Shown: one piece after another, positions 5,881 to 56,890 of the stretch
Layout: the number at the start of each line of letters is the position of its first letter
How positions within the stretch are numbered: the stretch's first letter is position 1
Assembly (NCBI RefSeq): GCF_004010195.1
Contig: NC_057739.1
Coordinates: forward strand, 44,357,486-44,421,485
Source of the DNA: Chiloscyllium plagiosum
Lineage: Eukaryota
Length of the DNA stretch: 64,000 nt
Reading direction: 5' to 3'
The notes under the pieces: model-generated
The model's database searches: none
What the model saw: the letters and a program-made list of their open reading frames with translations, nothing else
What the model was told of the DNA's origin: nothing
Made by a program: the position numbers and the translations under genes

Positions 5881-8232
5881 TAGAGTCATAGAATCAGAGA
5901 TGTACAGCATGGAAACAGACCCTTCGGTCCAACCCGCCCATGCCGACCAGATATCCCAATCTAGTCCCACCTGCCAGCACCCAGCCCATATCCCTCCAAA
6001 CCCCTCCTATTTATATATCCATCCAAATATCTCTTAAATGTTGCAATTATACCAGCCTCCACCACTTCCTCTGGCAGCTCATTCCATACATGTCCCACCT
6101 TCTGCGTGAAAAATTTGCCCCTTTGGTCTCTTTTATATCTTTCCCCTCTCACCCTAAACCTATGCCCTCTAGTTCTGGACTCCCCGACCCCAGGGAAAAA
6201 ACTTTGTCTATTTAACCTATCCATGCCCCTCATAATTTTGTAAACCTCTATAAGGTCACCGCTTAGCCTCTGACGCTCCAGGGAAAACAGCCCCAGCCTG
6301 TCCAGCCTCTCCCGATAGCTCAAATCCTCCAACCCTGGCAACACCCTTGTAAATCTTTTCTGAACCCTTTCAAGTTTCACAACATCTTGCCGATAGGAAG
6401 GAGACCAGAATTGCACGCAATATTCCAACAGTGGCCTAACCAATGTCCTGTACAGCCGCAACATGACCTCCCCAACTCCTGTACTCAATATTCTGACCAA
6501 TAAATGAAAGCATACCAAACGCCTTCTTCACTATCGTATCTACCTGCGACTTCACTTTCAAGGAGCTATGAACCTGCACTCCAAGGTCTCTTTGTTCAGT
6601 AAATCCCTAGGACCTTACCATTAAGTGTATAAGTCCTGCTATGATTTGCTTTCTCAAAATGCAGCACTTGTCATTTATCTGAATTAAATTCCATCTGCCA
6701 CGCCTCAGCCCATTGGCCCATATGGTCAAGATCCTGTTGTAATCTGAGGTAACCCTCTTCGCTGTCCACTACACCTCAAATTTTGGTATCATCTGCAAAT
6801 TTACTAACTGTACCTCTTATGCTCGCATCCAAATCATTTATGTAAATGTCAAAAAGTAGAGGTACCAGCACCAATCCTTGTGGCACTCCACTGATCACAG
6901 GCCTCCAGTCTGAAAAACTACCCTCCACCACCACCCTCTGTCTTCCACCTTTGAGCCAGTTCTGTATCCAAATGGCTAGTCCTCTCTGTATTCTGAGAGA
7001 TCTAACCTTGCTAATCAATCTCCCATGGGGAACCTTGTCAAACGCTTTACTGAAATCCATATAGATCACATCTACTGCTCTGCCCTCATCAATCCTCTTT
7101 GTTACTTCCTCAAAAAACTCAATCAAGTTTGTGAGACATGATTTCCCACGCACAAAGCATGTTGACTATCCCTAATCAGTCCTTGCCTTTCCAAATATAT
7201 GCATATCCTGTTCCTCAGGATTCTCTCCAACAACTTGCCCACCACCGATGTCAGGCTCCCTGGTCTATAGTTCCCTGGCTTGTCCTTACCACTCTGCTTA
7301 AACAGTGGCACCACGTTAGCCAACCTCCAGTCTTCACCTCACCTGTGACTATCAATGATACAAATATCTCAGCAAGAGGCCCAGCAATCACTTCTCTAGC
7401 TTCCCACAGAGTTCTAGGGTACACCTGATCCAGTCCTGGGGATATATCTATCCACCTTTATGCGTTTCAAGACATCCAGCACTTCCTCCTCTGTAATTTG
7501 GACATTTTGCAAGGTGTCACTATCTATTTCCCTACAGTCTATATCTTCCACATCCTTTCCACAGTAAATACTGATGCAAAATACTCGTTTAGTATCTCCC
7601 CCATTTTCTGCGGCTCCACACAAAGGCCGCCTTGCTGATCTTTAAGGGGCCCTATTTTCTCCCTAGTTACCCTTTTGTCCTTAACGTATTTGTAAAAACC
7701 CTTTGGATTCTCCTTAATTCTGTTTGCCAACGCTATCTCATGTCCCCGTTTTGCCCTCCTGGTTTCCCTCTTAAATATACTCCTACTGGCTTTATACTCT
7801 TCGAAGGATTCACTCAATCTATCCTGTCTATACTTAACATATGCTTCCTTCTTTTTCTTAACCAAACCCTCAATTTCTTTAGTCATCCAGCATTCCCTAT
7901 ACCTACCAGCCTTTCCTTTCGTCCTAACAGGAATATACTTTCTCTGCATTCTCATTATCTAATTTCTGAAGGCTTCCCAGTTTCCAGCCGTCCCTTTACC
8001 TGCAAACATCTGCCCCAATCAGCTTTCGAAAGTTCTTGCCTAATACCATCAAAATTGGCCTTTCTCCAATTTAGAACTTCAACTTTTAGATCTGGTCTAT
8101 CCTTTTCCATCACTATTTTAAATCCAATAGAATTATGGTCGCTGGCCCCAAAGTGCTCTCCCACTGACACCTCAGTCACCTGCCCTACCTTATTTCCCAA
8201 GAGTAGGTCAAGTTTTGCACTTTCTCTAGTCG
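5881..8232 (-). mobile_element. CR1/HER1-like LINE, about 2.3 kb of ORF2 with frameshifts
   Basis: ORFs carry LDLLLGN...SDHN (endonuclease end), NYRPGSLTSVVGKLLE, DFSKAFDKVPH, SGVPQG, FADDTK and LEYCVQFWSP. The 3' tail (ctatgactcta) is at the left end. Confidence 0.95.
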
Positions 8233-8761
8233 GACTTGAATTAATACGGTATAATGTCACATCCAGAGGTCTTCAGAATTAAATTTTGTTTTATAATGTA
8301 GATAAATTAAAACAAACAGTCAGTCAATCTTCAAACAATTAGATCCCACAAGCAACAACAGAGACAAATTTCCAGTTGGAGGGAAAATGTCAACTATGAC
8401 ATTGGAGGGTATTAAGATTTGCAACAATACAAAGGAGGAACTGGGACATGTCAGAATTGGGAGAGAGAATGTGTGGTTTGTCTCACTACGAGATTTGTAT
8501 AGTCTGCCAACAATATTAATTGGAAAGGAAACACGTCTGATTATATTTGGTGTGAGAAATATAAGGCCAGGAGTATTTATTTGTCAGTTTCCAAGCCATT
8601 TCTAATTAACACATTAAGATATTTCTCTTTTTGCCTTCCATGAAGCATCAAGGGATTCTTCCTATATAAAGATGCTATATAAATGCAAGTACAGAATTGT
8701 TATTGCAAGTTTTGCAAATCATTTCCTGCAAAACTGGTTAATAGTACGCAATTTCAGCACA

Positions 8762-13935: not shown

Positions 13936-15164
13936 TTGTTAAACTTAGAACTAGAAGCAGGCAATTATTCTCAGCATTTTACTTTCTGTAGCGCTTGCAA
14001 AAAGAACATGGTAAGGAATCAATTTCACTGCTTTAAACACATACATAAGAAGGCTCTTGTGGCACATAGGTAGTATCCACACCCCAAGTACATGCTGAAA
14101 TCCCAGCTTCAAAACGGCAGATGAACCATAGGTGGTCAGAGAAAGCACTTCAGTGATACCCTCAAAGCCTCCCTGGTGAAGTGTAACATTCCCACAGACA
14201 CTTGGGAATCACTGGGTTCTAATCACTTACTTTGATTAAAAGTATCATGAACTAGATGAATATGTGTATTCATGATGTCCTCAGGTCACAAAAACTGCAT
14301 AATTATAAGTTTCTTTGTCTGTATACAAATTATTCACAGACTATACAGTGCAGGAATGTCTATTTCCAATTAGTTCAACAACGTGATATTAAAAGGTAGC
14401 ATAAATTATAACTAAATATTAAGATACAGATAAATATTACTTATGGAAATATATTGCAAATCATGCAGCAAATTTAAGCATGGATGCATTCCAAGTAAAA
14501 TATATATTTATAACTTTATCCTGACAACTTTCATTGTTTGAAGCATGAAGAGAAAGACAACGCTCAGTGGGCGAAGGCAGCATCTCTCCAAGGAAAGACG
14601 GTTACTATTTCTCATCTATAATCCTTATTCTGAGGAACGGTCATAAACCCAATATATACATCATTTTTTCAACAAGTGCTGCCCAACATACAGCACTTCC
14701 AGAATCATCTGACTTCATTCGTTATTTGATCTACTTGACTAGGCAAAATGTGCTCGCTTCCTATTGTTTGCCGGTTGCTTTTCTACCACATTATAACAAT
14801 ACGACACGATCGTCTGTAATGCAACTATCACCTGCTTATCTCTCGTGCCATGCACTAATGAGATCTGAAGAAGTCAGTGAACTCCGAAACGTTAACGCTG
14901 CTTTCTCTCCAGGGATGGCTGCCAGAGCTGAGTTTCACCAGCAATTCCGTTAAAGAGATGGTTCAGCCAACTGTAACATTGCTGAACCACGATGATAATA
15001 ACTACAAGATTATAATGTGTAAATTACCAGTGAAGTTCGTTTCGCAATGGGCTGTGTGGAATTTCAAATTCAATGAGGATCGCACTTTTGCAAATAATAT
15101 GACAAAAATCGCACACGATTTGAAATACGCTCGAACATCCACCTTTTGCCACTAGAAAACTCAC

Positions 15165-15500
15165 AGTGTGGGGGTGGTCTATCCAGTGGACTTCAAACCC
15201 ATCGAAGGCGTGGCTCTTGATGTTCTTGATTAACTCCTTGCTCACCATGGGCTCCACCTGCCGGAGGAAGCGGGCCAGACGCGGGGAATCGATTGAAGGC
15301 TCCGCGCTCCCATTGAAAGCCGGCAGTTCTCGGCACTCGACCGGATCGGTCTGCGTACCGTTTCTCGCGCTGCGTCGACTCTGCACCGAGGCTTCGGAGC
15401 GCCGAACCGCGGTCGTTTGACAAACTGCGTCACGCAGCTCGGGAACCTTTCTCCAGCGCGAATCAACCGACACGGCTTCCTGGACTTCGTCAGTGAACAT
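15165..15500 (-). CDS. DYNC2I2: DYNC2I2/WDR34 (dynein-2 intermediate chain 2) coding exon 1
   Basis: ATG at 15500; 336 nt to donor ACT|gtgagt. [34 protein letters not shown] matches human [34 protein letters not shown]. Contains CQT and TQT light-chain-binding motifs. Confidence 0.93.
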
Positions 15501-23041: not shown

Positions 23042-23377
<336 letters not shown>

Positions 23378-24421
23378 TGATCTTGCAGTTACATTGAAAG
23401 AGAACTAGATTTACATGAGTTAGGTGATGTCAGGCAACAGTTTGCACAAGGGGTAATGGAAAGCTGGGATTTTGTAAGAATGCTGTTGGGTCTGCAAATT
23501 ATTAACAGTTAACTCGGAGTTTTGTTAGCTTGGTTCCTTAAAAGTTATACCTCTCTATCTGTTGTGATCTAATTGAATGATGGAATAGGCTCAAGGGACT
23601 GAATGCCGTACACCTGTTCCTACCTTTATCCAACCTGAAAAGTCTCAGTGGGTCTTGTGACTTGGTACTTCATTATTCCCTAATTTAGCTCAGAGAAGTG
23701 TAGGTGCATCCCGATATGTTTGTTACAGTTCTTTTCAAAGCCTCGCTGTAAGGTGATGAAAGCAGTAGTGTGACTTTGAGCAGTTATTTGGTAACTGCTT
23801 TAGAGTTGAGCTAGATCTTAATTGGTAGATGGATTTTAAGTGTTGACCAGCCTTGGTTTGTTTCTATGTAAAATTTGAGTCTATCCAAATTGATGTGATT
23901 CATTTGCATTCAATTAAAAAATATCTGTTCAGTTAACATTGCATGGAAAAGATTTAAATTTGTATCTCATTGACATTCATTGCAGTGTGTTTTTTCCCCT
24001 CTATGTATTATAATACTTTGCAATAATTTAGTTGCCAAATAATTGGTGTTCATTAGATTTGAATAGAAATCTTCCACTTCTTTGAATCTGCTAGGTACTG
24101 AGCTATGCATATCAGACATTTCAGTCCCATATCTGTTGAGTTCATTTGGCTATACTGTGAAAATTAGCTTTATAATGCTCTCATGGTGAAGTTTATTTAT
24201 CCTTCTTTGTTCCTCTTTCTTCAATTTTACTGTTCTTGGGAAAGCCTGATTGCCAATATTCTGCTAAATGTTATCTTTGCAACAGTTACTAGGTAAAACC
24301 TGATCAGATTAACATTGGAATTCTTCAAGATTTTCTCAACACTTAAATTCTGTGATATAATGTGTTTGGTTGCATCTTTGTTGTCTTTGAAGGGAATTTT
24401 AATTTTCAAAATTGAACTTAA

Positions 24422-24742
<321 letters not shown>

Positions 24743-25269
24743 TAGGTGTGCAAACTTATGACATGACATCTGATTTTGGTGTAAGGGATGTGGGCATTCA
24801 CCTTCATTAGTGATTGTATCACTTTGTGGGAAGTTCAGTATTTCTTTCCACACAAAGGAGCGAATGTGTGGGTATTATAACTGGCTCCATGCTATTGAGC
24901 AGCCAGGCTGAAATCCCAGAAGGGGGTGATGTTAATTATTTTACCTTTTTTGGGAGTTCTATTGCTTTATAATTGTTAGTTGTAAAGATGCATTATAGTT
25001 AATGCCAGATAGCTTGATATACTGTTGATTTTGTATGTGTCAGATCTTCACTCATTTGGCATTCTGTAGCAGTTTTGGAGGAATCTTAATCTTGTGTGCA
25101 GCAGATTTTTTTTGTTTAGCAATCCCATGTCATTTTAATGAATTCATTTTTGCCCTGGTGCTTGAAGACCATATGTGACTCTCACTTAGAAGTTCAAACA
25201 CTATGCTGAGGAGCTTTAACATGCATGCACTCTTTGACAAAAAGTATCATTATGATGTTGTCTTGCTAG

Positions 25270-25425
25270 GTTCCTGATATGGAAGATGAAGAAGGTGATG
25301 GTGAGGAGGAGGATGAAGATGAGGAGGAAGAAGAAGGATTGGAGGATATCGATGAAGAAGGAGATGAGGATGAAGAGGGTGAAGAGGAGGACGAAGAAGA
25401 GGAGGAGGAAGGAGAAGAAGCCGAG
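25270..25425 (+). CDS. SET: SET exon 7 (acidic tail), followed by a GC donor
   Basis: tgctag|VPDMEDEEGDGEEED...EGEEAE|gcaagt; phase 0, joining in frame to the last exon. Confidence 0.9.
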
Positions 25426-26002
25426 GCAAGTGTTTTCATTTTTAACTCCCAGCCCAGGTGTGGTAACATATATGCGGAACCTTTAAAATGCTTCTGGCTA
25501 ACTTTGTCTTTATTCCCCAAATGGGAAATGGCTGATCTCTCTGCATCAATAAGAGTATTCACCATGATCTCATTGGAGCAGATTTGATGGGCTAACTTCT
25601 GTCTTGTAGGCGGTTGCCTCAAATCTTGAATCTGTTCAAATTTCTTTTTTCACAAGTCTGACTTTCTTCAATGCTTTTCCAAAACAAGATTTGGCCACCA
25701 GTGTATCCTTATAGGATACAAGAGTTGTCTTGCAAATCCATGTAAGGGGAAGATCATCATTTTGGTTAAATATAAAATGGGAGGGTGCTTTAAGATTTGT
25801 TCAATATGTGTGGTTCCTATTAAATTTACAAATGTCATGCAGAAGAAAACTGAAATTTAACACTTTTTGGGCAAAAGATTTTGCACCTGTAATATGCATA
25901 GCTGTTAATAGTTGTGGAGGAACACACTTACAGTTCTGATTTGTATTTTATTTACATCCAGCTATTTTGTACTAACCTTTTTGTTTTCCATATTATTTGT
26001 AG

Positions 26003-30708: not shown

Positions 30709-31149
30709 TTGGTATCATTTTATCCTGGTCACGCTTAGTTTAGGTGGTGGTACTTTATGCACCTGCAGTTTCTGCAAGATTTTAATCATAGAAACTGGAT
30801 TTACTGTGGTCGACGTAATTTGGTCTATACGGTTTAATACTTGAAACAGAAGATACTGATGATTTTTCAGCCACAACAAAATGAGCCACAGATCCTTGTT
30901 ATGGGTGCAGACAATTACTGAGTTGGCAATATTCAACAAAAGTGGAAACATTGGAAAGTCACAATCACAAAACCCAGATCAAGCTTAAGTCTTATGCAAA
31001 AGCGCATTGGTGCCACACCTTAGGGTGCTAATTCCCTTTCCCAGCATTCAAACTTGAAGAATGCATATAAATTGAGTACATTTCATAAAGTGAAGATATA
31101 GGTATTAGTTATAAATATTTTTATTTCTATACAAAAAATAGGTTTGATT

Positions 31150-31304
31150 TCAACTCCGGTAGGACTTGGGTACCATGAGAAGTGTTGCAGCAATATTCTC
31201 CTGGAGGAGTCTGTCTATTATCAGTGCAACAAATGTCTCATCTGAATCCTCAAACTCTTCATCTGTAACATGCTGAGGCCAGATGCTGGGCTGAAATGAC
31301 CAAC
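31150..31304 (-). CDS. Secreted cereblon-like (CULT domain) protein, exon 2
   Basis: Acceptor ttttttcaacag|, phase 1. (G)WSFQPSIWPQHVTDEEFEDSDETFVALIIDRLLQENIAATLLMVPKSYRS* completes the HLGW.F and F.AL...L CULT motifs. AATAAA on the minus strand at 31120-31125. Confidence 0.88.
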
Positions 31305-32084
31305 CTGTTGAAAAAAATCCAAACGTAGGGTGAATAGACAAAACTTATCACGCGTTATAAAATGTGCCTTAAATATTCCAATGTTTCAAAGGTCAGTAAA
31401 ACTGAGCTAAAGGAGAAAACATTAAAGGTTTCAATGGCCTAGTCAAATAGGGTTTAAGTAGTATTAAAAACGAGCAATGTTTAGGAAATGAATTTCCAGA
31501 GCTTATGCCTAGAACATTGAAGTCACAGCTGCCAACATTGGGACCAAATACATGGGGAATTGTGTAATCAGGCAGAGGGGAAATGCATAGATCTGAAAGG
31601 GTTGAATCAGGTTACAGCAATAGGTTGAAGAGATATTTTGAACAGAAGAGGATTTTTTTTTTTGAAAAAGGAGACATTGGTGGATTGAAAGCCAAAGTGA
31701 ATAAGCCCAATAAGGAATGCAGGAGAACATTGTGGACCAGTATGACAGGGTGTGGTGTTACATGTCGGCCACAGAATTTTGGATGAGCTCAGCCAAAGCA
31801 TTGGAATAGTAAAAATTTAAGTTTTAAAAAATAAAAATGAGTTTGGCAGACAAAAGTAGACAGTCTTGCTGATAAAGAATACAGGATCAGAACTCAGCTC
31901 AGAGTCAAATGAAGCAAAGAGGTTGGAAAAGGGTAGAATCAGGAAATAGCTTGTGGTGGGATCTTAAGTTTAACATAGGAACTCAAGTACATTTTTAAGA
32001 AATCACAGATGACGTACAGCTCAACTCCCTGGTTTCCTGATTGTTCGTTTAACTGACCACCTTATCTGGACTTACCACAGATAC

Positions 32085-32621
32085 AATGGTCAGACAGCTT
32101 AGGAAATTTGACATGTCCATAAGGATCTTTAACTTTTACAGATGCACCATAGAAAGCATACTATCTGGCTGCATAATGGCCTGCTATGGCAACTGCTCTG
32201 CCCAGGACCGTAAGACTACAAAAGGTTATGTGCTCAGCCCAGACCATCATAGAAGCCAACATTCCATCCGTGGACTCCACTTACACCCTTCATTGCTGCA
32301 GAAAGGCTGCCAATATCAAAGACTCTGCCCACCCCAATAAGGCTCCTATAATCTCTTCCATCAGGCAGAAAATACAGAAGCTTGAACACATGTACCAATA
32401 GGTTCAAGGACAGCTTCTTCCCTTTTGTTATTAGATTGATGAATGAACTGGCCGCTAACTTCAAATAATGTTGATCTATCTTTGTGCATCTTATGTGCAG
32501 TGTAATCTTTATACCTCACTGTCTAAGCACCCTATGATCTATGTACTCTTACTATAATTTGTCAGTGCTGTTCGCAAACAAAGCCTTTCACTGTACTTGG
32601 GTACACAAGACAATAAATCAA
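32085..32621 (+). mobile_element. Rex1/Babar-like LINE 3' fragment
   Basis: RQLRKFDMS..NFYRCTIESILSGCI.A.YGNCSAQDRK; ends in acaataaatcaa. Confidence 0.75.
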
Positions 32622-32959
32622 AGTTAAAAGAAAATTGTAAAACCTTAAATTGAAACTGAAATTTTCAAAATCAACTTGGGTATAGGTTGGCATTCTAGAT
32701 TTCAAAGGCTTACACTAATTTTAAAAGATGTGCCTTCTCACTTTTGGCTGTCCTCTGCCACCAATTACTTCCCTCGTTATCCTTTTAGAAATTCTAATCA
32801 TCTTTTAAAAGACGTTTGATCAGAAACTTAAACGGACCAGCAACATTAATACTTCAGTTACAAACAGGGACTTCTGTACCCAGGGACTTCTGTACCCAGG
32901 GACTCATCCAACCTTTCCATCACCTGAAAAGCACAAATAGAGGGAATTTGTTGTAATAC

Positions 32960-34410
32960 CATAATGTAGGAGCAGAATTAGACCATTCAGCCCATCATGA
33001 TTACTACACCATTTTATCATGGCTAATACATTTTTTTTAGCCCCATCTTCCTGCCTTCTCTTTATAACTTTTGATCTCCTTCGTAATCAAGAGGCTATTT
33101 ATGTCTTGAATACACTCAATGACTTGACTTCCACAGCCTTCTGCAATGATTTTTCAGATTAACCACTCTGAACAAATTCCTCCTCATCTCAATTCAAAAA
33201 AAGAGTCATCCCCTCACATTAAGGGTGTACCCCCAGGTCCTAGACTCTCTCAATGGAAACATTTTCATTTCCACCCTATCTAGGCCCCTCATATTCTACA
33301 TTTCAAGATCCCCCCTCATCCTTCTAAACTCTATCAAGTACATTCCCAGAGTTATCCACAATTCCTTGTGATAAGTCCTTTATCACATTTTTCTTATGAA
33401 CCCATCCTTTGCCAGCACATCCATCCTTCGATACCAGCCCAAAACTGCACACAATATTCCATATGAAGTTTGACCAGAACTTTATACAGCCTAGCAGTAC
33501 ATCTCTAGCCCTTGAAATTAATGCTAACATTACACTTAACTTCCTAACTGCCAAATGAACTTGCATGTTAACCTGAAAGGAATCCTGAATTAGGACTCCC
33601 TACTTCAAAATTTCCAAAGCCGTTCCCCATTTAGAAAATAATTTACACACTTCTACCAAAGTGTATAACTCACTTTCCCACATTGTATTCCATCTGCCAC
33701 TTCTTTGCCCACTCTCCTAGCCTATCCAAGAACTTCTGCAGCCACCCTGCTTCCTCAACATTACCTGTCCTTCCAGCTAACTTTGTCACCTGTGAACTTA
33801 GTTTGCCCTCCATCCCATTGTACGTTAATAATATGGACAAAGGAAATGGCTGTGGTTCCAACACTGATCCGTGCAGATCTCCACTAATCACAGGTTACCA
33901 TCCTGAAAAAGACCCCTTAACCCCACTCCCTGCCTTCCGTCTGCCTGTCAGTCAATCCTCTATCCTGGGTGAAAGCGAGTACTGCAAATGCTGGACATTA
34001 GAACCAAGAGTGTGGTGCTACAAAAGTACAGCCAGCCAGGCAGCATCCAAGCAGGAAAATCAACGTTTTGGGTAAAAGCCCTTCATCTATTCTAATCTTG
34101 TCTATAACACCAGAGGCTCTAATCTTATTTAGCCATCTCCTTCAGAATTCAGGCGTGTAATCCATCTGATCTGGGTGATTTATCCACTTTCAAACCTTCC
34201 AGCTTCCCCAGCACCTTCTCCTTAGTGTTGGCCACGACACTCACCTCTCTCTGCCCCCTGACACCCTTGAAATTCTGGTATGCTACTGGTGTCATCCACT
34301 GTGAAGATTGATGTGGAATTCACCAGTTTTCTCATTTCGGGTCCTGATTATTTCTTAGTTTTCCCCATTACTACCTCTTCAGCCTCAATATCCAAGCCAA
34401 CTCTTGCTTC
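32960..34410 (-). mobile_element. Decayed CR1 LINE fragment(s)
   Basis: ORF 33670..33891 GSVLEPQ...LDRLGEWAKKWQMEYNVGK. Confidence 0.75.
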
Positions 34411-34429
34411 TTTATAAACATTCTCAATG

Positions 34430-36345
34430 AGAAAATAGGAAGCATGGTTACTAAGTTTGCAGATGACACCAAAATCGGTGGTTATAGTGGACAGTGAAGA
34501 AGGTTATATAAGAGTACAACAGAATCTTGATCAACTGGGCCAATAAGCAAAGAAGTGGCAGGTGGGGTTTAATTTACTTAAGTGTGAAGTAGTGCATTTT
34601 GGTAAGACAAACATGGGCAGGACTTGCACAGTTAATGGTAGAGACATGGGAAGTGTTGTTGAATAGAGAGACTTAAGGGATCAGGTACATACTTCCTTGA
34701 AAGTGACATCACAGAGGGACAGGATGGTGAAAGTGCTGTTTGGCAAGCATACCTTCATTGGTTGAAGCATATGAGCTGCAATATCATGTTGTGGTTGTCC
34801 AGGACATTTGTGAGGCCACTTTTGGAGCACTGCGTACAGTTCTGGTCACCCTGCTATAGGGTGTGTTATTAAATTGGAAAGAGTGCAAAGATGATTTACA
34901 AGGATGCTATAACACACTGGAGTGTTTGAGTTATAAGGAAAAGCTAGGACTTTTTTTCCTTGGGCCAAGATTAGAGTGGTGCTGGAAAAGCACAGCAGGT
35001 CAGGCAGCATCCGAGAAGCAGGAAAATCGACATTTCAGGTAAAAGCCCTTCATCAGGAATAGAGGCAGGGTGCCTGCAGGGTGGAGAGATAATCTGAGAG
35101 CGGGGTGGGGGTGGGGAGAAAGTAGCAAAGAGTACAACAGGGGTGGGGATGAAGGTGATAGGTCAGAGAGGAGAGTGGAGTGGATAGGTGGAAAAGAAGA
35201 TAGGCAGGTCGGACAGGTCATAGGGACGGTGCTGAGCTGGAAGGTTGGAACTGGGGTGAGGTGGGGGAAGGGGAAATGAGAAAACTGGTGAATTCCACAT
35301 CGATGCCCTAGGGTTGAAGTGTTCCAAGGTGGAAGATAAGGCGTTCTTCCTCTAGGTGTCGGGTGGTGAGGGAGCTGCGGTGGAGGCGACCCAGAACCTG
35401 CATGTCCTCGGCAGAGTGGGAGGGGAAGTTGAAATGTTGGGCCACAGGGCGGTGGGGTTAATTGGTGTGGGTGTCCCAGAGATGTTCCCTAAAGCGCTCT
35501 GCTAGGAGGTGTCCAGTCTCCCCAATGTAGAGGAGGCCGCACTGGGAGCAAAGGATACAATAAATGATATTAGTGGATGTGCACGTAAAACTTTGATGGA
35601 TGTGGAAGGCTCCTTTGGAGCCTTGGATGGAGGTGGTGTGGGTGCAAGTTTTGCAATTCTTACGGTGGCAGGGGAGGGTGCCAGGAAGGGAGGGTGGATT
35701 GTTGGGGGGTTTGTGGACCTGACCAGGTAGTCACGGAGGGAATGGTCTTTGCGGAAAGTGGAATATATCCCTGGTGGTGGGGTCCGTTTGGAGGTGGCGG
35801 AAATGTCGTCAGATAATGTGGTTTATGCGAAGGTTAGTAGGTTGGAAGGTGAGCACGGGGGGGGGGGGGGGTGTTCTGTCCTTGTTACAGTTGAAGGGGT
35901 GGGGTTTGAGGGCAGAGGTGCAGGATGTGGACGAGATGTGTTGGAGGGCATCTTTAACCACGACAGAATGGAAATTGCGGTCTCTAAAGGAGGCGGCCAT
36001 CTGGTGTGTTCTGTGGTGAAACTGGTCCTCTTGGGAGCAGATACGGCAGAGGAATTGGGAATACAGGAGGGCATTTTTGCAGGAGGTAGGGTCGGACGTG
36101 GTGTAATCCAGGTAGCTGTGGGAGTCGGTGGGTTTGTAAAAAATGTCAGTGTCAAGTCAGTCGTCATTAATGGAGATGGAGAGGTCCAGGAAGGGGAAGG
36201 AAGTGACTTCTTTCCTTGGAGCATAGGAGGTTGATGGGTGACTGGATTGAAGTTTATAAAATTAGGAGCACATAAGGTGAATAACAAAGGTCTTTTCCCG
36301 AGGATGGAGAGTTCAAAACTAGAAGCATAATTTTAAGGTGAGAGG
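34430..36345 (+). mobile_element. CR1 fragment interrupted by a Penelope insertion (CR1 parts about 34430-34966 and 36205-36345)
   Basis: aagtttgcagatgacaccaaaatcgg (KFADDTK) and related sequence. Duplicated junction gacttt..ttccttgg at about 34948 and 36205. Confidence 0.75.
34968..36200 (-). mobile_element. Penelope-like element (RT C-terminus, GIY-YIG, pLTR)
   Basis: Minus-strand LPFLDLSI..YKPTDSHSYLDY-like sequence, MAASFRDRNF, PPVLTFQPTNLRINHII. Degenerate hammerhead at about 35024-35060. Confidence 0.85.
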
Positions 36346-36349
36346 AAAA

Positions 36350-36765
36350 AGTGCCAGGGACCCAGATTCGATTCCAGCCTCAGCCGACTGTCTGCATGGT
36401 ATTTGCACATTCTCCCCATGTCTACGTGTGGGTTTCCTCCCGGTGCTCTGGTTTCCTCCCACAGTCCAAAAGATGTGCAGGTTAGGTGAATTTGCCATAC
36501 CTAACACTTTGTGCAATTAGGTGCATTAGTCAGGGGTACAGTGGCTCAGTGGTTAGCACTGCCGCCTTACAGCGCCAGGGTCAATTCCAGCCTTGGGCGA
36601 CTATCTGTGTGGAGTTTGCACATTCTCTGCGTGGATTTCCTCCGGGTGTTCCGGTTTCCTCCCACAATCCAGGTGAACTGGCCACGCTAAATTGTCCATA
36701 GTTGTTAGGTGCATTAGTCGGGGGTGGGTTACTCTTCGGAGGGTTGGCGTGACCTTGTGGGGATT
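36350..36765 (+). mobile_element. Two tandem HE1-like V-SINE copies
   Basis: tRNA-like head plus gtgggtttcctcccggtgctctggtttcctcccacagtccaaa core, present twice. Confidence 0.85.
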
Positions 36766-36813
36766 CTAATTCAAAAGTGGTAAATATCGATAATGAAACG
36801 AACGTAAACAAAC

Positions 36814-37186
36814 CTAAGTGATTATGGCACCTGGGACACGTTGCCACTGTCCAAGAGTGTCCAGGGAACCAGGAGAACTGCTCCTCCGCCGGCCAGTGTC
36901 TGTGTACAGCGGCTTTCTTGAAAGTGAGTACCTGGAAGCGAAGTCCCTGGGGGTTCTGGAAAAGCTGCACCGGGACCCTGCGCTCGCCGATCACCGTGTC
37001 GTTACGCTGGGCTAAAGCCAGGGCGCTGGCCACGAACTTGAGGTCCCGGCTGGCGGCCACCTCGAAGCCGCATGATCTGCACAGTAAGAGCTCATCTCGG
37101 GAACTTCTCTCCTCCTGGCTGGCGTTGTGGCCGCTCACGGCAGGCAGCAGCCACACCAACAGCGGAGGCACCAACACCTGCCACAT
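36814..37186 (-). CDS. Secreted cereblon-like (CULT domain) protein, exon 1
   Basis: ATG at 37186; signal-peptide-like MWQVLVPPLLVWLLPAVSG; LLCRSCG...FQNPQG..F.V.T....FSWFPGHSWTVATCPRCHNHLG; donor TTAG|gtttgt, phase 1; CpG-rich coding sequence. 373+155 nt = 175 aa. Confidence 0.9.
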
Positions 37187-37719
37187 CCTCCGGGCCGCTT
37201 CTCTTAACTCCTTCAAAAACTTTTTATTTTCTTTGGTTCGCCTAGACCCCTAAAAAAAGTGATTTAAAAACAAATATATAAACCCCATTCAGTTCCTAAG
37301 TTTTGCCTGAAGCTTTCCCAATGTTATTACACAAGCCTTTGTATCAAATATGTATCTATTTTACTCCTCTTGTAACTGTAGCCTCCCCACGGCTGATATT
37401 TAAATGAACAGCACACAGGAGGGGAAAGATGAATCTCGCTGCATTTAGGGATTCTTCAGACTATTTCCTCCCCCCCCTGCTGGCTGGAGGATTCCAATTC
37501 ACTTGATGGTGCTGGGGGAGGGTTCAAAAGGCTATTCGACCAGTCCTGCCTCTGCTGGTTCATTTGACCGAACCATCCATTCAGCCTCCCTCCCATCCCT
37601 TCCATGTTTCCCTGTTCATCTCTTTGGGGGAAAAGGCAACAATAGCTCGTGTTCTAAGGCATCTTTCACTGAGGGTTGCTTAAATAACAGCACATAAGCC
37701 AGTCACCCTTTATTTACTT

Positions 37720-38440
37720 GTCAAACAATGTGGCACTGGAAAAGCACAGCAGGTCAAGGCAGCATCTGAAGGGCCGGAAAGTCAACATTTTGGGCATAAA
37801 GAATGAGAAAGGGGAAGAAGGCTGAGATAAATGGAGGGGTGGGGAACTCTCCTAATCTTCAGATGCTGTGCTTGCACAACACCATAATTTTTGGCTCTGA
37901 CTCTCGAGCATCTACAGTCCTCACTTCCTCCTAGTTGCTGAAAATCTTACTATGAAGCCTCTTCCAAGGGTTTAGATCAGAGTGGTGCTGAAAAAGCATA
38001 GCAGGTCAGGCAGCATCCGAGGAGCAGGAAAATCAACATTTCGGGCAAAAGCCCTTCATCAGGAATACAGACAGGAAGCCTTCAGGGTAGAGAGATAAAT
38101 GGGGGGGGCTAGGGAAAAGGTAGCAAAAAAAAAGAGTACAATAGGTGAATGGGGATGGAGGTGATAGGTTNNNNNNNNNNNNNNNNNNNNNNNNNNNNNT
38201 CTATTCCTCCCCCCCCCAGTCATCTCCTCTGCCCTGAAGCTACTGCCCTCCTGCATCCACCTATCCCCCAAACCTCAATTTATCTCTCAGTCCACTCTCC
38301 CCCCCCCAATTCCTGATGAAGGATTTTATGTCCAAAACATTGATATTCCTGCTTTTCAGATGCTGCCTGACCAGCTGTGCTTTTCCAGTACCACACTTTT
38401 TGACTCTGACTCCCCAGCATCTGCAGTCCTCGCTTTCTCT
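37720..38440. mobile_element. Cluster of fold-back Penelope-derived short elements
   Basis: Repeated gctggaaaagcacagcaggtcaggcagcatc arms and their reverse complements; hammerhead-like cores at 38031-38066 (-) and about 38309-38345 (+). Confidence 0.75.
38171..38199. other. Assembly gap (29 N)
   Basis: Run of N inside an inverted-repeat element. Confidence 0.99.
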
Positions 38441-39635: not shown

Positions 39636-40054
39636 ACTCTCTTGAGAAGGTGTGAATTATTCAATATTGTTAAGGTAGAAGTAGTTAGATTCTTACTAAG
39701 TAAACATTGAAAGCCTTGCGGATGCTGAAAATCAGAAACAAAAACAGAAATTACTGGAAAAGCTCAACAGGTCTGGCACCATCTGTGGAGAAAAAGCAGA
39801 GTTAACGTTTCAGGTCCAAGATAATCACAACATTTAAAAGGCATCTGATGGGTATATAAATAGGAAGGGTTTGGAGGGATTTGGGCCAAATACTGGCAAA
39901 TGAGATTAGGTTAGGATATCTGGTCGGCATGGTCGAGTTGGACCAAAGGGTCAAGGTCCGAGATGTACACCTCTATGACTCTATTACCCTCCCTCAAGAA
40001 CTGTTCTTCAAACACAATGTGGACTTGCGGCCTCATTACAATAACAACAGATGA

Positions 40055-40300
40055 CATCACACGGACGAGGGCCCGCCCGCTACCTTCTATTCGTCGGAAA
40101 TTAGTGATTGACAGCACAACATGTGATCGCAATTGTCCAACTGGCGACTGGGTCGCGCGGCCCCAGGTCGGGAGCGCGCTGGGTTTAAAAATATTTCAAA
40201 CGGCGTATCCGTTAGTCGCTCAACTGTCTGAAGGGAATAACCGAACACTACCAGCTTTTCGGGGAGGGGGAAAAGAAATAAACTTGCTGAGGGATGATGG
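40055..40300 (+). promoter_or_regulatory. PKN3 CpG-rich promoter / 5'UTR
   Basis: CpG cluster upstream of exon 1; GC box gcccgccc; TGATTGACAG at 40105-40114; TTTAAAA at 40184-40190. Confidence 0.65.
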
Positions 40301-40317
40301 CGGGGGAGTGCAAGCAG
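40294..40317 (+). CDS. PKN3: PKN3 exon 1 (MMAGECKQ)
   Basis: ATG in the CpG island, donor CAG|gtcagg, phase 0. A short first coding exon ending in Gln is typical of PKN genes. Confidence 0.7.
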
Positions 40318-40547
40318 GTCAGGAAAAGTTACAGAAACAAAATCAAAAGTCGCTGGAGCGGCTCAGCGAGTCAGGGAAAAATTGCGAGTCTGTTCTTGAT
40401 GTTTCCTCACTTTGCAAGAAGGACAATCCTAGGGAGAGCCCTGTTTAAATGGATTTTTTTTTAACGGGCAGCGTTCATACTTCAGTGTCAGGTTATGGGT
40501 TTGAGTCTCCATTGGGAACTCACGGGCACAACAATTAGACTAACATT

Positions 40548-41007
40548 GGAGGGTCAGTGCTGAGGGGGAGCCGCGCTGTCGGAGGGTCAGTGCTGAGGGG
40601 GAGCCGCGCTGTGGGAGGGTCAGTGCTGAGGGAGCGCCGCGCTGTGGGAGGGTCAGTGCTGAGGGAGCGCCGCGCTGTCGGAGGGTCAGTGCTGAGGGAG
40701 CGCCGCGCTGTCGCAGGGTCTGTGCTGTGGGAGTGTTACAATGCCAGAGTAACTCTCTGCGAGGTATCTATTATTCTATATATAAACCACCCTGGACCCC
40801 TCAATTCGATTGCGGTCTGTAACTCACTCCCAGGTATCTCTTATTCTAAATGTAAACCAGCCCAAGTCCCTGAATTAGATTCCAGTCTGTGACTCACTGC
40901 TCGGTATCTGCTATTCTCCCCCACCACCCTGCTGTTGGAGGGTCAGTGCTGAGGGAGTGCCGCACTGTCGGAGGGTCAGTGCTGAGGGAGCGCCGCGCTG
41001 TCGGAGG
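40548..41007. repeat. 33-bp minisatellite (ggagggtcagtgctgagggagcgccgcgctgtc): about 6 copies at 40548-40735 and about 2 at 40937-41007
   Basis: Units start at 40548, 40581, 40614, 40647, 40680, 40713, 40937 and 40970. Confidence 0.92.
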
Positions 41008-43133: not shown

Positions 43134-43434
43134 AGCAATTCCTACCAGCTGTTGATCAACCAGAGGCTGGACCTGGAAGAAGGAAGTGATCTCTTGGATC
43201 CAGATATACAACAAAAACTTGATGAAGTAAAAGATCTGATTCGACGTGAAATACAAAAAGAGCTAAAAATCAAAGAGGGAACGGAGAATTTGCGTAAAGT
43301 GACAACGGACAAGAAAAATCTGGCTCATGTGGAAAATATTTTGAAAACCTCAAATCGCAAATTGAAACGTCTGCATTGGGAACTTCAGGAGCTGAATGCA
43401 CGAATTATGGTTACAGATCGGGACATTCGGGGAG
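43134..43434 (+). CDS. PKN3: PKN3 exon 2 (HR1a)
   Basis: tatttag|[12 protein letters not shown]...[64 protein letters not shown]...G|gtgagt. Confidence 0.9.
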
Positions 43435-48132: not shown

Positions 48133-48843
48133 AATGGTAAGGTCCTAGGGAGTGTTGCTGAACAAAGAGACCTTGGAGTGCAGGTTCATAGCTCCTTGAA
48201 AGTGGAGTTGCAGGTAGATAGGATAGTGAAGGCGGTGTTTGGTATGCTTTCCTTTATTGGTCAGAGTATTGAGTACAGGAGTTGGGAGGTCATGTTGCAG
48301 CTGTACAGGACATTGGTTAGGCCAATGTTGGAATATTGCATGCAATTCTGATCTCCTTTGTATCGGAAACTTGCAAGGGTTCAGAAAAGATTTACAGGGA
48401 TGTTGCCAGGGTTGGAGAATTTGAGCTATAGGGAGAGGCTGGACAGGCAGGGGCTGTTTTCCCTGGAGCATCAGAGGCTGAGGCGTGACCTTATAGAGGT
48501 TTGCAAAATTGAGGGGTATGGATAGGATAAATAGACAGTCTTTTCCCTGGGGTCGGGGAGGGCATAGATTCAGAGTGAGAGTGGAAAGATATAAAAGAGA
48601 CCTAAGGGGCAACTTTTTCATGCAGAGGGTGTTACGTGTATGGAATGAGCTGCCAGAGGAAGTGGTGGAGGCTGGTACCATTGCAACATTTAAGAGGCAT
48701 TTGGATGGGTATATGAATAGGAAGGGTTTGGAGGGCTATGGGCTGGGTGCTGGCAGGTGGGACTAGATTGGGTTGGGATATCTGGTCGGAATGGACAGGT
48801 TGGACAGAAGGGTCTGTTTCCATGCTGAACATCTCTGACTCTA
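48133..48843 (+). mobile_element. CR1/HER1 3' fragment
   Basis: GNFFMQRVLRVWNELPEEVVEAGTIATFKRHLD; the same family as 5881-8232. Confidence 0.92.
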
Positions 48844-52282: not shown

Positions 52283-55200
52283 CCAGGTGGGACATGAAGA
52301 ATGGGTTACACCTGAACTGGAGGGACACAAATGTTCTAGGTGGGAGATTTGCTCATGTGATTTGGGAGGGTTTAAACTAGTTTGGCGGGGGGGGGTGTGG
52401 GAATCAAAGCCACATATGAGAGGGGGACAGTTGCAGATGGGGCAGTGACAGGATGTAGTGAATCTATCAGGAAGGTTTCTCATGCAATGAAACAAAGGAA
52501 TCATTCAAGTGTCTGCTTTAACACAAGGAGTGTCAGAAACAAGAGTGACTAACTTAGAGCATGTATCAGTACTTAGGGCTACGATGTTGTGGCCACAATG
52601 GAGATGTGGGTTTCACAGGGGCAGGAATGGTTGCTTGATGTTCCAGGGTTTAGAACATTTTAAAAAGAACAGGGAGGTTGGAAAAAGAGGGGATGTAGCA
52701 TTTCTAATCGGAGAGTGCATTGCAACTACAGAAACAAAGGTTATTGAGGAAGGTTTGTCTTCTAAGTCAGTATGGGTGGAAGTTAGGAACAGCATTGGGG
52801 ATTTTCTACAGACCCCCTAATAGCAGTAGAGAGATTGAAGAACTCCGAGGTGGGCAGATTTGGAAAAATGCAGATGTAGCAGGGTGGTTGTTATGGGTGA
52901 TTTCAACTTTCCCAATATCGACTGGAACCTCCTAAGTGCACATGGATTGGATGGAACCATTTTTGTCAGGTGGGTTCAGGAGGGTTTCCTTACTCGCTAT
53001 GTATTCAGACCGACGAGGGGAGAGGCCATTTTGGATTTGGTGCGCAGCAATGAGCCAAGACAGGTGTCAGATCTCGCAGTGGGAGAACACTTTGGCAACA
53101 GTGATCACAACTGCCTCACATTTACCATAGCCTTCGAGAGGGAAAGGAGCAGTTACGAAGGGAAGATATTTAAGTGTCACAATTTCCTTTTCCCCAATAT
53201 CAGACAGGAGTTGGGAAGTACAGACTGGGAGCAATTGTTCCACAGGGTACAGTAGATATGTAGAGACTATTTAAGGAGCAGTTATTGCGAGAGATGCACA
53301 AATTTGTTCCTCTGAGACTGGTAAGATTAAGGAACCTTGGATGATGAGAACAGAGGAGCTTCTTGTCAAAAGGAAGAAGGCAGCTCACGTAAGGTGGAGG
53401 AAGCAAGGATCTAGCAAGGCTTTAGAGGATTACAGGCTTGCTAGAGAGGAGCTCAAAAATTGACTGAGGACAGCCAGGAGGGGGCACAAAAAAGGCTTAG
53501 TAAGAGGGATTAGAGAGAACCCAAAGGCATTTTACTCATATATGAGGAATAAGAGAATGATCAGGGAGAAGGTAGGGACGATCAGGGATAGCAGAGGGAA
53601 CTTGTGCGTAGAGTCTGAGCAGATAGGGGAAGCCCTAAATGAGTTTTCTTTTTTGCTTCAGTTTTCACTAAGGAAAGGGACCTTGTTGTGAATGAAAATT
53701 TTGAGGAGCTGGGGTACAGACTTGACCAGATCAAGATTGATGAAGTCGATGTGCTGGAAAGTTTGCAAAAACATTAAGATCGATAATCCCCAGGGCCAGA
53801 CCAGATTTATCATAGGCTGCTCTGGGAAGCGAGAAAGGAGGTTGCTAAGCCGCTGGCGATGATCTTTGCCTCCTCACTCTCCATGGGAGTTGTACCGGAG
53901 GATTGGAAGGAGGCAAATGTTGTTCCTCTTTTCAAGGGCAATAGGGAAATCCTTGGCAATTGCAGACCAGTCAATCTTACATCTGTGGTCAGCAAAGTTT
54001 TGGAAAGATATGAGGGATAAGATTTAATGACTATTTGGCAAAGTATTGTGTGATTAAAGGCAGTCAGCATGGCTTTGGGAGGGACAGGTCATGCGCCTCA
54101 AATCTTATTGAATTCTTTGAGGAGGTGTCAAGACAGGTTGATGAAGGTCAAGCAGTTGGTGTGGTGTATGTGGACTTCAAGGTATTTGGTAAGGTTCCCT
54201 ATGGTAGGCTCATTCATAAAGTCAGGGAGTATGGGGTACAGGGACATTTGGCTATCTGGATTCAGAATTGGCTGGCTGACAGAAGGCAGAGTGTGGTTGT
54301 AGATGGAAAGTATTCTGCCTGGAGGTCAGTGTTGAGTGAGGTCCCGCAGGGCTCAGTACTTGGGCCTCTGCTCTTTGTAGTTTTTATAAATGACTTGGAT
54401 GAGGACATTGAGGGGCGGGTTAGTAAATTTGCAGATGACACAAAGGTTGGAGGTACCATCGATAGTATCGAGGGCTATTGCAGGCTGCAGCGCAACATAG
54501 GATGCAGCGCTGGGCTGTGAAATGGCAGATGGAGTTCAACCTGGATAAATGCGAAGTGATGCATTTCGGAAGGTCAAGGTCGAACTCGAATGCTGAATAT
54601 AGGATTAAAGACAGGATTCTTGGCAGTGTGGAGGAACAGAGGGATCTGGGTGTGCAGTACATCCCTCAAAGTTGCCACCCAAGTTGATAGGGTTGTTAAG
54701 AAAGCATGTGGTGTCTTGGCTTTCATTAATACGGGTATCGAGTTTAAGAGCTGCAAGGTTTTGCTGCAGCTCGACAATTCCCTGATGAGATCACACTTGG
54801 AATATTGTGTCCAGTTCTGGTCACCCTACTATAGGAAACATACAGAGGCTTTGGAGAGGATGCAAAGAAGGTTTACCAGGATGTTGTCTGGACTGGAGGG
54901 CTTGTCTTATGAAGAAAGGTTGAATAAGCTCGGACTTCTCTCTGGAGAGAAGAGACCTGATTGAGGTATACAAGATAACGAGAGGAATAGATAGAGTCCA
55001 TAGAGTCATAGAGATGTACAGCATGGAAACAGACCCTTCCATCCAACCCGTCCATACTGACCAGATATCCCAACCCAATCTAGTCCCACCTGCCAGCACC
55101 CGGCCCATATCCCTCCAAAGCCTTCCTATTCATATACCTATCCAAATGCCTCTTAAATGTTGCAATTGTACCAGCCTCCACCACATCCTTTGGCAGCTCA

Positions 55201-56890
55201 TTCCATACACGTACCACCCTCTGCGTGAAAATGTTGCCCCTTGGGTCTCTCTTATATCTTACCCCTCGCACCCTAAACCTATGCCCTCTAGTTCTGGACT
55301 CCCTGACCCCAGGGAAAAGAGTTTGCCTATTTATCATAATTTTGTAAACCTCTATAAGGTCATCTCTCAGCCTCCGGCACTCCAGGGAAAATAGCCCCAG
55401 CCTGTTCAGCCTCTCCCTGTAGCTCAGATCCTCCAACCCTGGCAACATCCTTTTAAATCTTTTCTGATCCCTTTCAAGTTCCACAACATCTTTCCGATAG
55501 GAAGGAGACCAGAATTGCATGCAATATTCCAACAGTGGCCTAACCAATGTCCTGTACAGCCGCAACTCCTGTACCCAACTCCTGTACTCAATACTCTGAC
55601 CAATAAAGGAAAGCATACCAAACGCCTTCTTCACTATCTAATCTGAGGTAACCCTCTTTGCTGTCCACTACACCTCCAATTTTGGTGTCATCTGCAAACT
55701 TACTAACTGTACCTCCTTATGCTCGCATCCAAATCATTTATGTAAATGACAAAAAGTAGAGGGCCCAGCACTGATCCTTGTGGCACTCCACTGGTCACAG
55801 GCCTCCAATCTGAAAAACTACCCTCCACTACCTTTGTCTTCTACCTTTGAGCCAGTTCTGTATCCAAATGGCTAGTTCTCCCTGTATTCCATGAGATCTA
55901 ACCTTGCTAATCAGTCTCCCATGGGGAATGCCTTACTGAAGTCCATCTAGATCACATCTACTATTCCGCTCTCATCAATCTTCTTTGAGTTTTTATGAAG
56001 TAGTAACAATCACATTTGAGAGACATGATTTCCCACTCACAAAGCCATATTGACTATCCCTAATCAGTCCTTGCCTTTCCAAATATATGTACATCCTATT
56101 CCCTCCAACAACTTGCCCACAACTGAGGTCAGGCTCACCGGTCTATAGTTTCCTGGCTTGTCTTTACCACCCTTAAACAGTGGCACCATGTTTGCCAACC
56201 TCCAGTCTTCTGGCACCTCACCTGTGACTATCGATGATACAAATATCTCAGCAAGAGGCCCAGCAATCACTTCTCTAGTTTCCCACAGAGTTCTCAGGTA
56301 CACCTGACCAGGTCCTGGGGATTTATCCACTTTTAACTGTTTCAAGACATCCAGCACTTTCTCCTCTGTAATCTGGACATTTTGCAAGATGTCACCATCT
56401 ATTTCCCTACAGTCTATATCTTCCATATCCTTTTCCACAGTAAATACTGATGCAAGATATTCATTTAGTATCTCCCCCATTTTCTGTGGCTCCACACAAA
56501 GGCCGCCTTGCTGATCTTTGAGGGGCCCTATTCTCTCCCTAGTTACCCTTTTGTCCTTTGATATATTTGTAAAATAGCCAGAGACTTTTCCCCAGGGCAG
56601 GATTGACTGGTACGAGTGGTCATAGTTTTAAGATATTAAGAGAAATGTATAGAGGAGATGCCAGATGTAGGTACTTTACGCAGAGAGTTGTGAATGCATG
56701 GAATGCAATACCAGTGATGGTGGTGGAAGCAGAGTCATTAGGGACATTTAAGCAACTGCCAGACGTGCACATGGATAGCAGAGAGTTGAGGGGTGAGTAA
56801 GTTAAGTTATTATATTTTACATTAGGATTAAACTTCAGCTCAATATCATGGGCCTAAAAGCCGGTTCTGTGTCGTACTTTTCTATGTACT
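52283..56890 (+). mobile_element. Long CR1 LINE of a second subfamily, interrupted at about 54992-56575
   Basis: Endonuclease motifs IFYRPP, VMGDFNFPNIDW, LDLV, SDHN; RT motifs [30 protein letters not shown]. The 3' end resumes at about 56576 (TSGHSFKI..FTQRVVNAWNAIP). Confidence 0.92.
54993..56575 (-). mobile_element. CR1/HER1 copy inserted antisense into the plus-strand CR1
   Basis: ORFs 55080..55634 and 56064..56495 are very similar to the 5881-8232 copy; tail catagagtcatagagatg at the junction. Confidence 0.92.

Follow-up and report, generated by a model that had tools for sequence, protein, structure and literature searches.

What would a cereblon-type ligand pocket do in a protein that appears to leave the cytosol? 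The question is raised by a 64,000-nucleotide stretch of the Chiloscyllium plagiosum genome (NCBI RefSeq assembly GCF_004010195.1, contig NC_057739.1, positions 44,357,486 to 44,421,485 of the forward strand), hereafter the window. In it, a first-pass annotation made from the sequence alone had described a two-exon gene for a signal-peptide-bearing homologue of cereblon (CRBN) that consists of the CULT domain only. We find that the locus is an intact, conserved shark gene for a CULT protein. In our reading, to which we assign a probability of about 0.6, this conserved and expressed gene encodes a small, soluble secretory-pathway glycoprotein built from one CULT (beta-tent) domain. Feature coordinates, given as window positions, are collected in Table 1.

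Joining the two minus-strand coding exons in silico gave an uninterrupted frame of 175 codons that closes with TGA, as the first-pass annotation had proposed. The phase-1 junction creates Gly125. The donor of exon 1 reads CACTTAG/GTTTGT, the acceptor of exon 2 consists of a T-rich tract followed by CAACAG/, and the ATG has a purine at -3. Aligned with the RefSeq entry 'protein cereblon isoform X1' of Chiloscyllium punctatum (P0002, 175 aa), the spliced product shows 5 differences in 175 positions. Among 45 close matches, 30 cross the junction into the same exon-2 sequence, 14 end exactly after HL(G) and one is an alternative isoform. The splice junction is thus supported by protein records of other species that continue across it, while the 14 early ends are as intron read-through would give. 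Splicing from an internal alternative donor at 36931 to the same acceptor causes a frameshift and yields a 112-aa product without the cage, possibly a regulated non-binding form or a decayed transcript.

The description as a two-exon gene holds for the coding region. A likely acceptor lies 63 nucleotides upstream of the ATG, and a further 5' exon of the gene is therefore probable. These 63 nucleotides form an open, Lys/Arg-rich frame that is in phase 0 to the acceptor at 37250, and would be either 5' untranslated region or an optional basic N-terminal extension. An extension could turn the product into a type II membrane protein, with an upstream exon joining the 37250 acceptor, the basic stretch leaving the hydrophobic segment uncut and the CULT domain facing the lumen. 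Many teleost gene models, with 45-55 residues before the first Cys and in several cases a basic start, are in keeping with such an anchor. Nevertheless, we consider it improbable. Among sharks and rays, five of the six complete, named records begin at the equivalent Met, and the longer start of the Mobula record matches the upstream frame of the window over only ~5 residues. Moreover, the sole upstream in-frame ATG-donor pair found (38993-38966) is weak and lacks homology support, and a hydrophobic (h-) region of 11 residues is short for an anchor.

The upstream region also bears on the claim that the protein is CULT-only, without a LON/DDB1 module. From exon 1 to the CpG island before the neighbouring PKN gene, stop-free frames reach at most 137 aa (the stretch contains a 29-base gap of N), LON is absent from the 175 residues, and complete named orthologues are mostly 162-195 aa long. 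Because no longer stop-free frame lies upstream and the orthologues are this short, a LON domain in the full-length product is very unlikely. An upstream LON exon was rejected, given the lack of a long stop-free frame and the one weak ATG-donor pair. The CULT domain spans residues 31-162 of the 175; no dedicated search for longer fused forms was made. One of the 150 listed representatives (P0087, 476 aa) carries a family-type CULT domain behind ~370 unrelated residues, as a real fusion or a faulty model.

Pfam searches with exon 1, exon 2 and the full C. punctatum orthologue returned no match, and the family identity therefore came from sequence and fold searches against the PDB. The sequence searches returned cereblon and MsCI4, a single-domain CULT protein of Magnetospirillum (E 5e-11). 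Across the family, PF03226 (Yippee-Mis18) matched 59 of 93 rows at E<=0.01 (best 6.4e-08). Note that these 93 full-length family rows were hand-picked from 194 collected proteins with the data in view. For the C. punctatum protein (97% identical), an AlphaFold model based on the 93-sequence alignment reached a predicted local distance difference test score (pLDDT) of 88.4 and a predicted template-modelling score (pTM) of 0.77. The closest folds among 48,161 chains were MsCI4 (Z 15.0, root-mean-square deviation 2.6, 104 residues aligned) and the thalidomide-binding domain (TBD) of human CRBN (Z 14.6, deviation 2.5, 104 aligned), ahead of Mis18 (Z 9.7) and YPEL5 (Z 9.1). A Foldseek search with the C. 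punctatum orthologue gave E 3.8e-8.

All named motifs are present: AVSG (residues 16-19), NAS (21), CRSC (36), NDT (62), NPQG (78), SWFPGHSW (105), CPRC (117) and HLGWSF (123), with the NPxG at the hairpin tip taking the form N78-P-Q-G. Alignment to the 442-aa CRBN chains equates N78 with N351, P79 with P352, W106 with W380, W112 with W386, H123 with H397, W126 with W400 and F128 with F402. All aromatic residues of the cage (W106, W112, W126 and F128) are thus kept, as previously proposed, and the pocket residues are conserved across the 93 rows (Table 1; W126 in 92 and F128 in 83, with Tyr in 9). The four Cys are a putative zinc site; oxidation in the endoplasmic reticulum (ER) is possible instead. 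The natural imide degron of GLUL contacts seven CRBN residues, W380, W386, W400, N351, H397, Y355 and H357 (10.1101/2025.03.24.645050), and five of these seven are kept in the shark protein. Retention of H123 matters, because the H397Y mutation abolishes CRBN function in cells (PMC12824623). Judged from the alignment, the rim of the shark pocket is closer to bacterial MsCI4 than to human CRBN.

By sequence, the shark gene is an orthologue of fish si:ch211-51h9.7, and it fits the 'secreted eukaryotic CULT' group (group II) described by Lupas, Zhu and Korycinski in 2015 (PMC4287342), in line with the earlier suspicion that the family was not new. Named orthologues are called si:ch211-51h9.7 (several teleosts, Stegostoma and Latimeria) or labelled 'protein cereblon' or 'CRBN', and the top Atlas clusters include a 'Putative conserved secreted protein'. 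A search among 50%-identity representatives returned 436 relatives at E<=0.001. Identity to the shark protein is 78-89% in sharks and rays, 53-65% in most bony fish and 26-47% in the invertebrate rows. In a tree of 54 rows, midpoint-rooted and with a thin outgroup, 43 family-type rows form one clade (97/97), apart from nine short-hairpin, signal-less rows and two LON-type rows. Six divergent signal-bearing CULT proteins (P0084, P0150, P0154, P0160, P0172 and P0185) are unlike the animal rows and possibly come from non-animal eukaryotes.

These data bear on whether the gene could be a decayed or truncated CRBN duplicate, a pseudogene or fragment. Such an origin would be consistent with the 'protein cereblon' label on several orthologues and with the confinement of CRBN identity to the CULT stretch. 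It is contradicted by the conservation data, namely the intact frame, the high identity among sharks and rays, the separate clade and shared features absent from CRBN. We rejected it and give it almost no weight.

Group II reaches placozoans, nematodes and insects and was stated not to extend beyond fishes (PMC4287342). Three divergent members among 175 candidates come from tetrapods: the frogs Ascaphus truei and Discoglossus pictus and the turtle Platysternon megacephalum. Their rows (P0055, P0194 and P0076) group together as a clade within the vertebrates (99/96) and are fast-evolving: measured from the node that they share with Latimeria, their paths are 0.86-1.07 long, compared to 0.21 for Latimeria and Chiloscyllium. 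In all three the N351 equivalent is Asp or Glu. Both frogs have Arg at the H397 position and keep the signal, the sequon and the three Trp. The Platysternon record, labelled 'urocortin-3-like' apparently by error, has neither the signal nor the sequon, and its first CxxC is not intact; a faulty gene model or a gene in decay could account for this. The tetrapod members extend the published range, although the supplement to the 2015 paper may already include such members, and the sequon too. No bird or mammal was among the named matches; these searches needed shared words, one of them scoring 8,000 candidates, and do not show absence. The frog and turtle records suggest that the family was lost stepwise rather than at the fish-tetrapod boundary.

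Entry into the secretory pathway, as previously claimed, is supported by the hydrophobic N-terminus together with a strongly conserved sequon. Residues 4-14 have a mean Kyte-Doolittle value of 2.5 (11 residues), and cleavage after Ala16, Ser18 or Gly19 satisfies the -1/-3 rule. A hydrophobic N-terminus was found in 77 of 81 family rows (12 more were too short to score), compared to 9 of 93 domain bodies. At N62, 83 of 92 rows show an exact sequon; its middle position is filled by 15 different residues, and Asn never occupies this column without the following S/T. In contrast, only 20 of 364 other Asn positions lie in an S/T sequon. An unselected recount covered the 184 collected proteins of <=300 aa, minus 28 without the needed columns or N-terminus, with hairpins classed by the distance from the first Cys to NP (long, 40-58 residues; short, 25-27). 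Long-hairpin proteins had the sequon in 127 of 143 cases and a hydrophobic N-terminus in 122 of 143, compared to 0 of 13 and 1 of 13, respectively, for short-hairpin proteins. The conserved hairpin sequon supports a luminal or secreted location.

The first-pass annotation had left the choice between ER-luminal and extracellular. A KDEL-like C-terminus is present in only one of the 93 rows, and most rows lack a second hydrophobic anchor. ER retention by a KDEL-type tail was rejected on this count, and an ER-luminal protein is less likely than a secreted one, because such an end is almost never present. Right where cleavage is predicted, most bony-fish members carry one or two Cys that sharks lack, which could possibly form a disulfide or a covalent dimer.

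Several points weigh against a secreted, ligand-binding CULT glycoprotein. The n-region of the shark signal has no basic residue, and its h-region contains two prolines (P7 and P8). The relatives share ancestry, so that the sequon counts represent one evolutionary pattern and not 156 independent tests. The structure models were built for C. punctatum P0002 and not for the spliced product of the window, and a first model from a shallower 33-sequence alignment reached a pLDDT of only 77.1. The one experiment cited by the 2015 family paper is a sand fly salivary study (PMC2714351). Its likeliest CULT candidate appears to be PabSP126, with two transcripts, no 'detected' mark for the proteome and no predicted N-glycan site. 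The experimental support cited in 2015 may thus be weak, at the transcript level only. In a literature search that covered few subscription papers, we found no functional study of the family and no binding, secretion, glycan or zinc data for any member.

The long-hairpin proteins also share parts that CRBN lacks. The sequon-bearing hairpin is 14 residues longer than that of CRBN and 16 longer than that of MsCI4, and the spacing from C36 to N78 is 42, compared to 25-27 in short-hairpin relatives. The loop between W126 and F149 is likewise longer than in the CRBN domain. Conservation of the C-terminal tail extends from sharks to an annelid (P170 in 82 and L166 in 77 of 93 rows), and the tail has no CRBN counterpart, as the CRBN TBD aligns to residues 31-159/162 only. 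Such conservation could mean that no imide-like ring occupies the pocket at all and that the hairpin and tail surfaces make the protein a structural or protein-binding module, possibly a dimer with oxidised Cys. Yippee-type domains do oligomerise (PMC4818781), and the frogs change the N351 and H397 equivalents yet retain the signal, sequon and tail. On the other hand, few columns are as strongly conserved as the cage Trp, N78 and H123, a pattern difficult to account for if the pocket held no ligand, and the frogs retain all three Trp. We regard an idle pocket as doubtful.

Yippee/YPEL and Mis18 proteins (PF03226) are intracellular. They have the beta-tent fold and CxxC pairs in common with the shark protein at 16% identity, and differ in lacking the tri-Trp cage of CULT. 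CRBN itself, a substrate receptor of CRL4, shares with the shark protein the CULT fold, the four Cys and the equivalents of W380, W386, W400, F402, N351, P352 and H397. In contrast to CRBN, the shark protein has no LON-N/LON-C, no DDB1-binding connector and no N-terminal belt. It adds a signal peptide, the longer hairpin with its sequon and the C-terminal tail, and it replaces H357 by Phe, Y355 by Leu, H378 by Phe and Y384 by His. MsCI4 (PDB 4V2Y), also a stand-alone domain, is the best fold match (32% identity) and likewise carries Phe where CRBN has H357 and H378. Unlike the shark protein, it is bacterial, lacks signal and glycan, has the shorter hairpin and carries Tyr101 where shark and human have Phe. 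From group II the shark protein shows no difference in kind: both combine an N-terminal signal with a lone CULT domain, three cage Trp, two CxxC and NPxG, with an animal range. The accessible text of the 2015 paper makes no mention of a conserved sequon, a hairpin insertion or a C-terminal tail.

How such a protein might work can be outlined from these features. The N-terminal peptide would direct it into the ER and be cut near residue 19; N62, and in sharks also N21, would be glycosylated, as their conservation suggests. In the predicted model, folding around the CxxC/CxxC site forms the three-tryptophan cage. By homology to cereblon and MsCI4, the cage would hold a small carbonyl-bearing ring, with the rim residues N78 and H123 contacting whatever the ring is attached to. 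The protein would most likely leave the cell and act as a stand-alone carrier, scavenger or reader that does not ubiquitinate its targets. Export and a role independent of ubiquitin are proposed because there is no LON/DDB1-binding part, no identifiable catalytic residue and no ER-retention tail.

The nature of the ligand can be addressed by analogy only. A protein or peptide end with a cyclic imide, or a related lactam such as pyroglutamate, is ranked first, because the rim residues that contact peptide backbone are kept. We put this forward tentatively, well short of an even chance. Against it, the Y355 position is Leu in the shark and variable in the family, and 87 of 93 rows share with MsCI4 a Phe at the H357 position; both differ from the contact set of the GLUL degron. 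In addition, Lupas et al. favour a widespread small ligand over a peptide motif (PMC4287342), cyclic imides hydrolyse readily, most at pH 8 (PMC11725857), and our literature search found no support in print for a link between pyroglutamate and cereblon. Some other ligand comes second in our ranking. That the protein is not luminal, or binds nothing, seems improbable.

UDP-sugars (UDP, uridine diphosphate) are concentrated in the ER and Golgi. A luminal or extracellular sensor or buffer of uridine, UDP or UDP-sugars, tied to glycosylation or nucleoside salvage and not to protein damage, would use the same pocket. MsCI4 binds uracil and uridine (PMC4287342), its solved complexes on record comprising thalidomide, deoxyuridine (4v31) and valerolactam, and UDP-glucose has been reported as an endogenous CRBN-dependent degrader of glucokinase (PMC13366208). 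However, the near absence of KDEL-like ends, mostly with no second anchor, leaves no evident means of retention in the lumen, and inspection by eye revealed no basic phosphate-binding cluster among the conserved columns. A ligand of the uridine or UDP-sugar type is accordingly placed third and judged unlikely.

The presence of the family in placozoans, nematodes and insects argues against another possibility, an extracellular carrier of 3-keto steroids or similar ring metabolites. These animals do not use vertebrate corticosteroids. A secreted single domain would meet such hormones. Cortisone binds MsCI4 and also the human TBD, the latter about as well as thalidomide does and with its A-ring in the cage; testosterone binds too, and with steroids cytosolic CRBN degraded no tested neosubstrate (10.64898/2026.08.28.747849). 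A steroid or other ring metabolite stands below uridine in our ranking and is rather unlikely.

A wider proposal can be built on the imide-type ligand. The family could be a second, extracellular arm of cyclic-end recognition in animals, whose targets would be secreted proteins that, through damage or processing, end in aspartimide, glutarimide or pyroglutamate. It would serve ubiquitin-free clearance, with the long hairpin and C-terminal tail engaging a receptor or the protein itself. Decay of this arm would have set in among early tetrapods, as seen in altered N351 and H397 equivalents and ~4x longer branches, and ended in its loss toward mammals. We consider the proposal speculative and unlikely as a whole.

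The neighbouring genes were identified as SET and a PKN gene, in agreement with the first-pass annotation; similarity tests bore out both, with an HR1a exon for PKN. The PKN neighbour is presumably the paralogue PKN3, going by human synteny. The gene order in the window is DYNC2I2-SET-[CULT gene]-PKN and extends the conserved order; in human, DYNC2I2, SET and PKN3 are adjacent, and no CULT gene is known between them. The position of the CpG island before the PKN gene suggests that this gene and the CULT gene may share a head-to-head promoter. Tandem copies of a ~30-35 nt G+C-rich unit, probably a shark repeat, lie beside the island at 40540-40700 and 40950-41000. The assembly gap of 29 N is at 38171-38199, between coding exon 1 and the island. 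A further CpG island (~14.5-17.5 kb) marks the head-to-head region of DYNC2I2/WDR34 and SET. Broken reverse-transcriptase-like frames occur at many intervals, e.g. 5961-8272, 48145-48735 and 54014-56627, and presumably are fragments of CR1/LINE retrotransposons. A search of the whole window against Rfam gave 0 matches.

Table 1. Features of the CULT gene and its neighbourhood (window positions; rows refer to the 93-sequence family alignment)
Feature	Position	Strand	Basis or remark
DYNC2I2/WDR34 coding exon, head-to-head with SET	15105-15500	-	E 3e-17 to human
SET exons (NAP domain, acidic tail)	23042-25587	+	tail-to-tail with CULT gene
First AATAAA past the stop, candidate poly(A) signal	31120..31125	-	25 nt after stop
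Coding exon 2 (W126, F128, last strand, C-terminal helix and tail, stop TGA)	31150..31304	-	155 nt
Family-specific C-terminal helix and tail, residues 160-175	31153-31200	-	alignment, model
W126 (= W400) codon	31300-31302	-	alignment to CRBN
GT-AG intron, phase 1	31305..36813	-	5,509 nt; same-place break in 14/45 relatives
Coding exon 1 (Met1-Leu124 and first base of Gly125; signal peptide, most of CULT domain)	36814..37186	-	373 nt
Second CxxC (C117, C120) and H123	36818..36838	-	kept in 93, 92 and 82 of 93 rows
Cage W106, W112; H110 at Y384 position	36851..36871	-	W106 88/93, W112 93/93
Internal alternative donor CAG/GTACTC (36931)	36930..36931	-	32/35 residues match Stegostoma 'isoform X2' (P0016)
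NPQG sensor-loop motif (N78 = CRBN N351, P79 = P352)	36944..36955	-	Asn in 89/93 rows
Extended beta-hairpin, residues 59-77, with sequon N62-D-T at 36995-37003	36956..37012	-	model strands 59-66, 69-77
First CxxC (C36, C39), zinc-site equivalent	37070..37081	-	Cys in 89/93 rows, gaps in 4
Sequon N21-A-S just past predicted cleavage site	37118..37126	-	6/6 complete named shark/ray proteins examined
Predicted signal peptide, residues 1-19 (h-region 4-14)	37130..37186	-	hydropathy, -1/-3 rule
Probable 5' part of exon 1 (63 nt) and upstream acceptor	37187..37251	-	T-rich tract, AG at 37251-37250
CpG island before PKN gene; candidate shared promoter and site of a non-coding first exon	40001..41000	.	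CpG observed/expected 0.96, 0.63
PKN HR1a exon	43161-43433	+	similarity test

In conclusion, the shark gene itself is unsurprising: it adds one more species to a family known since 2015, with a close orthologue already annotated. What is new here is modest, namely the sequence evidence for the secretory route, the family-specific parts and the tetrapod members with an altered pocket. The 'protein cereblon' and 'CRBN' labels on orthologues can lead comparative work and expression analyses astray. What the cereblon pocket binds in nature is still being established, with C-terminal imides known since 2022 and steroids reported in a 2026 preprint. A small animal protein that consists of this one domain, keeps the cage, lacks a ligase and apparently lies outside the cytosol offers a clean test of pocket binding apart from ubiquitination. 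If it binds thalidomide, it would be a second target of the drug in fish and invertebrate experiments. Should the family in fact be an extracellular arm of cyclic-end recognition, zebrafish, the standard model of thalidomide teratogenicity, would contain an overlooked thalidomide-binding protein.

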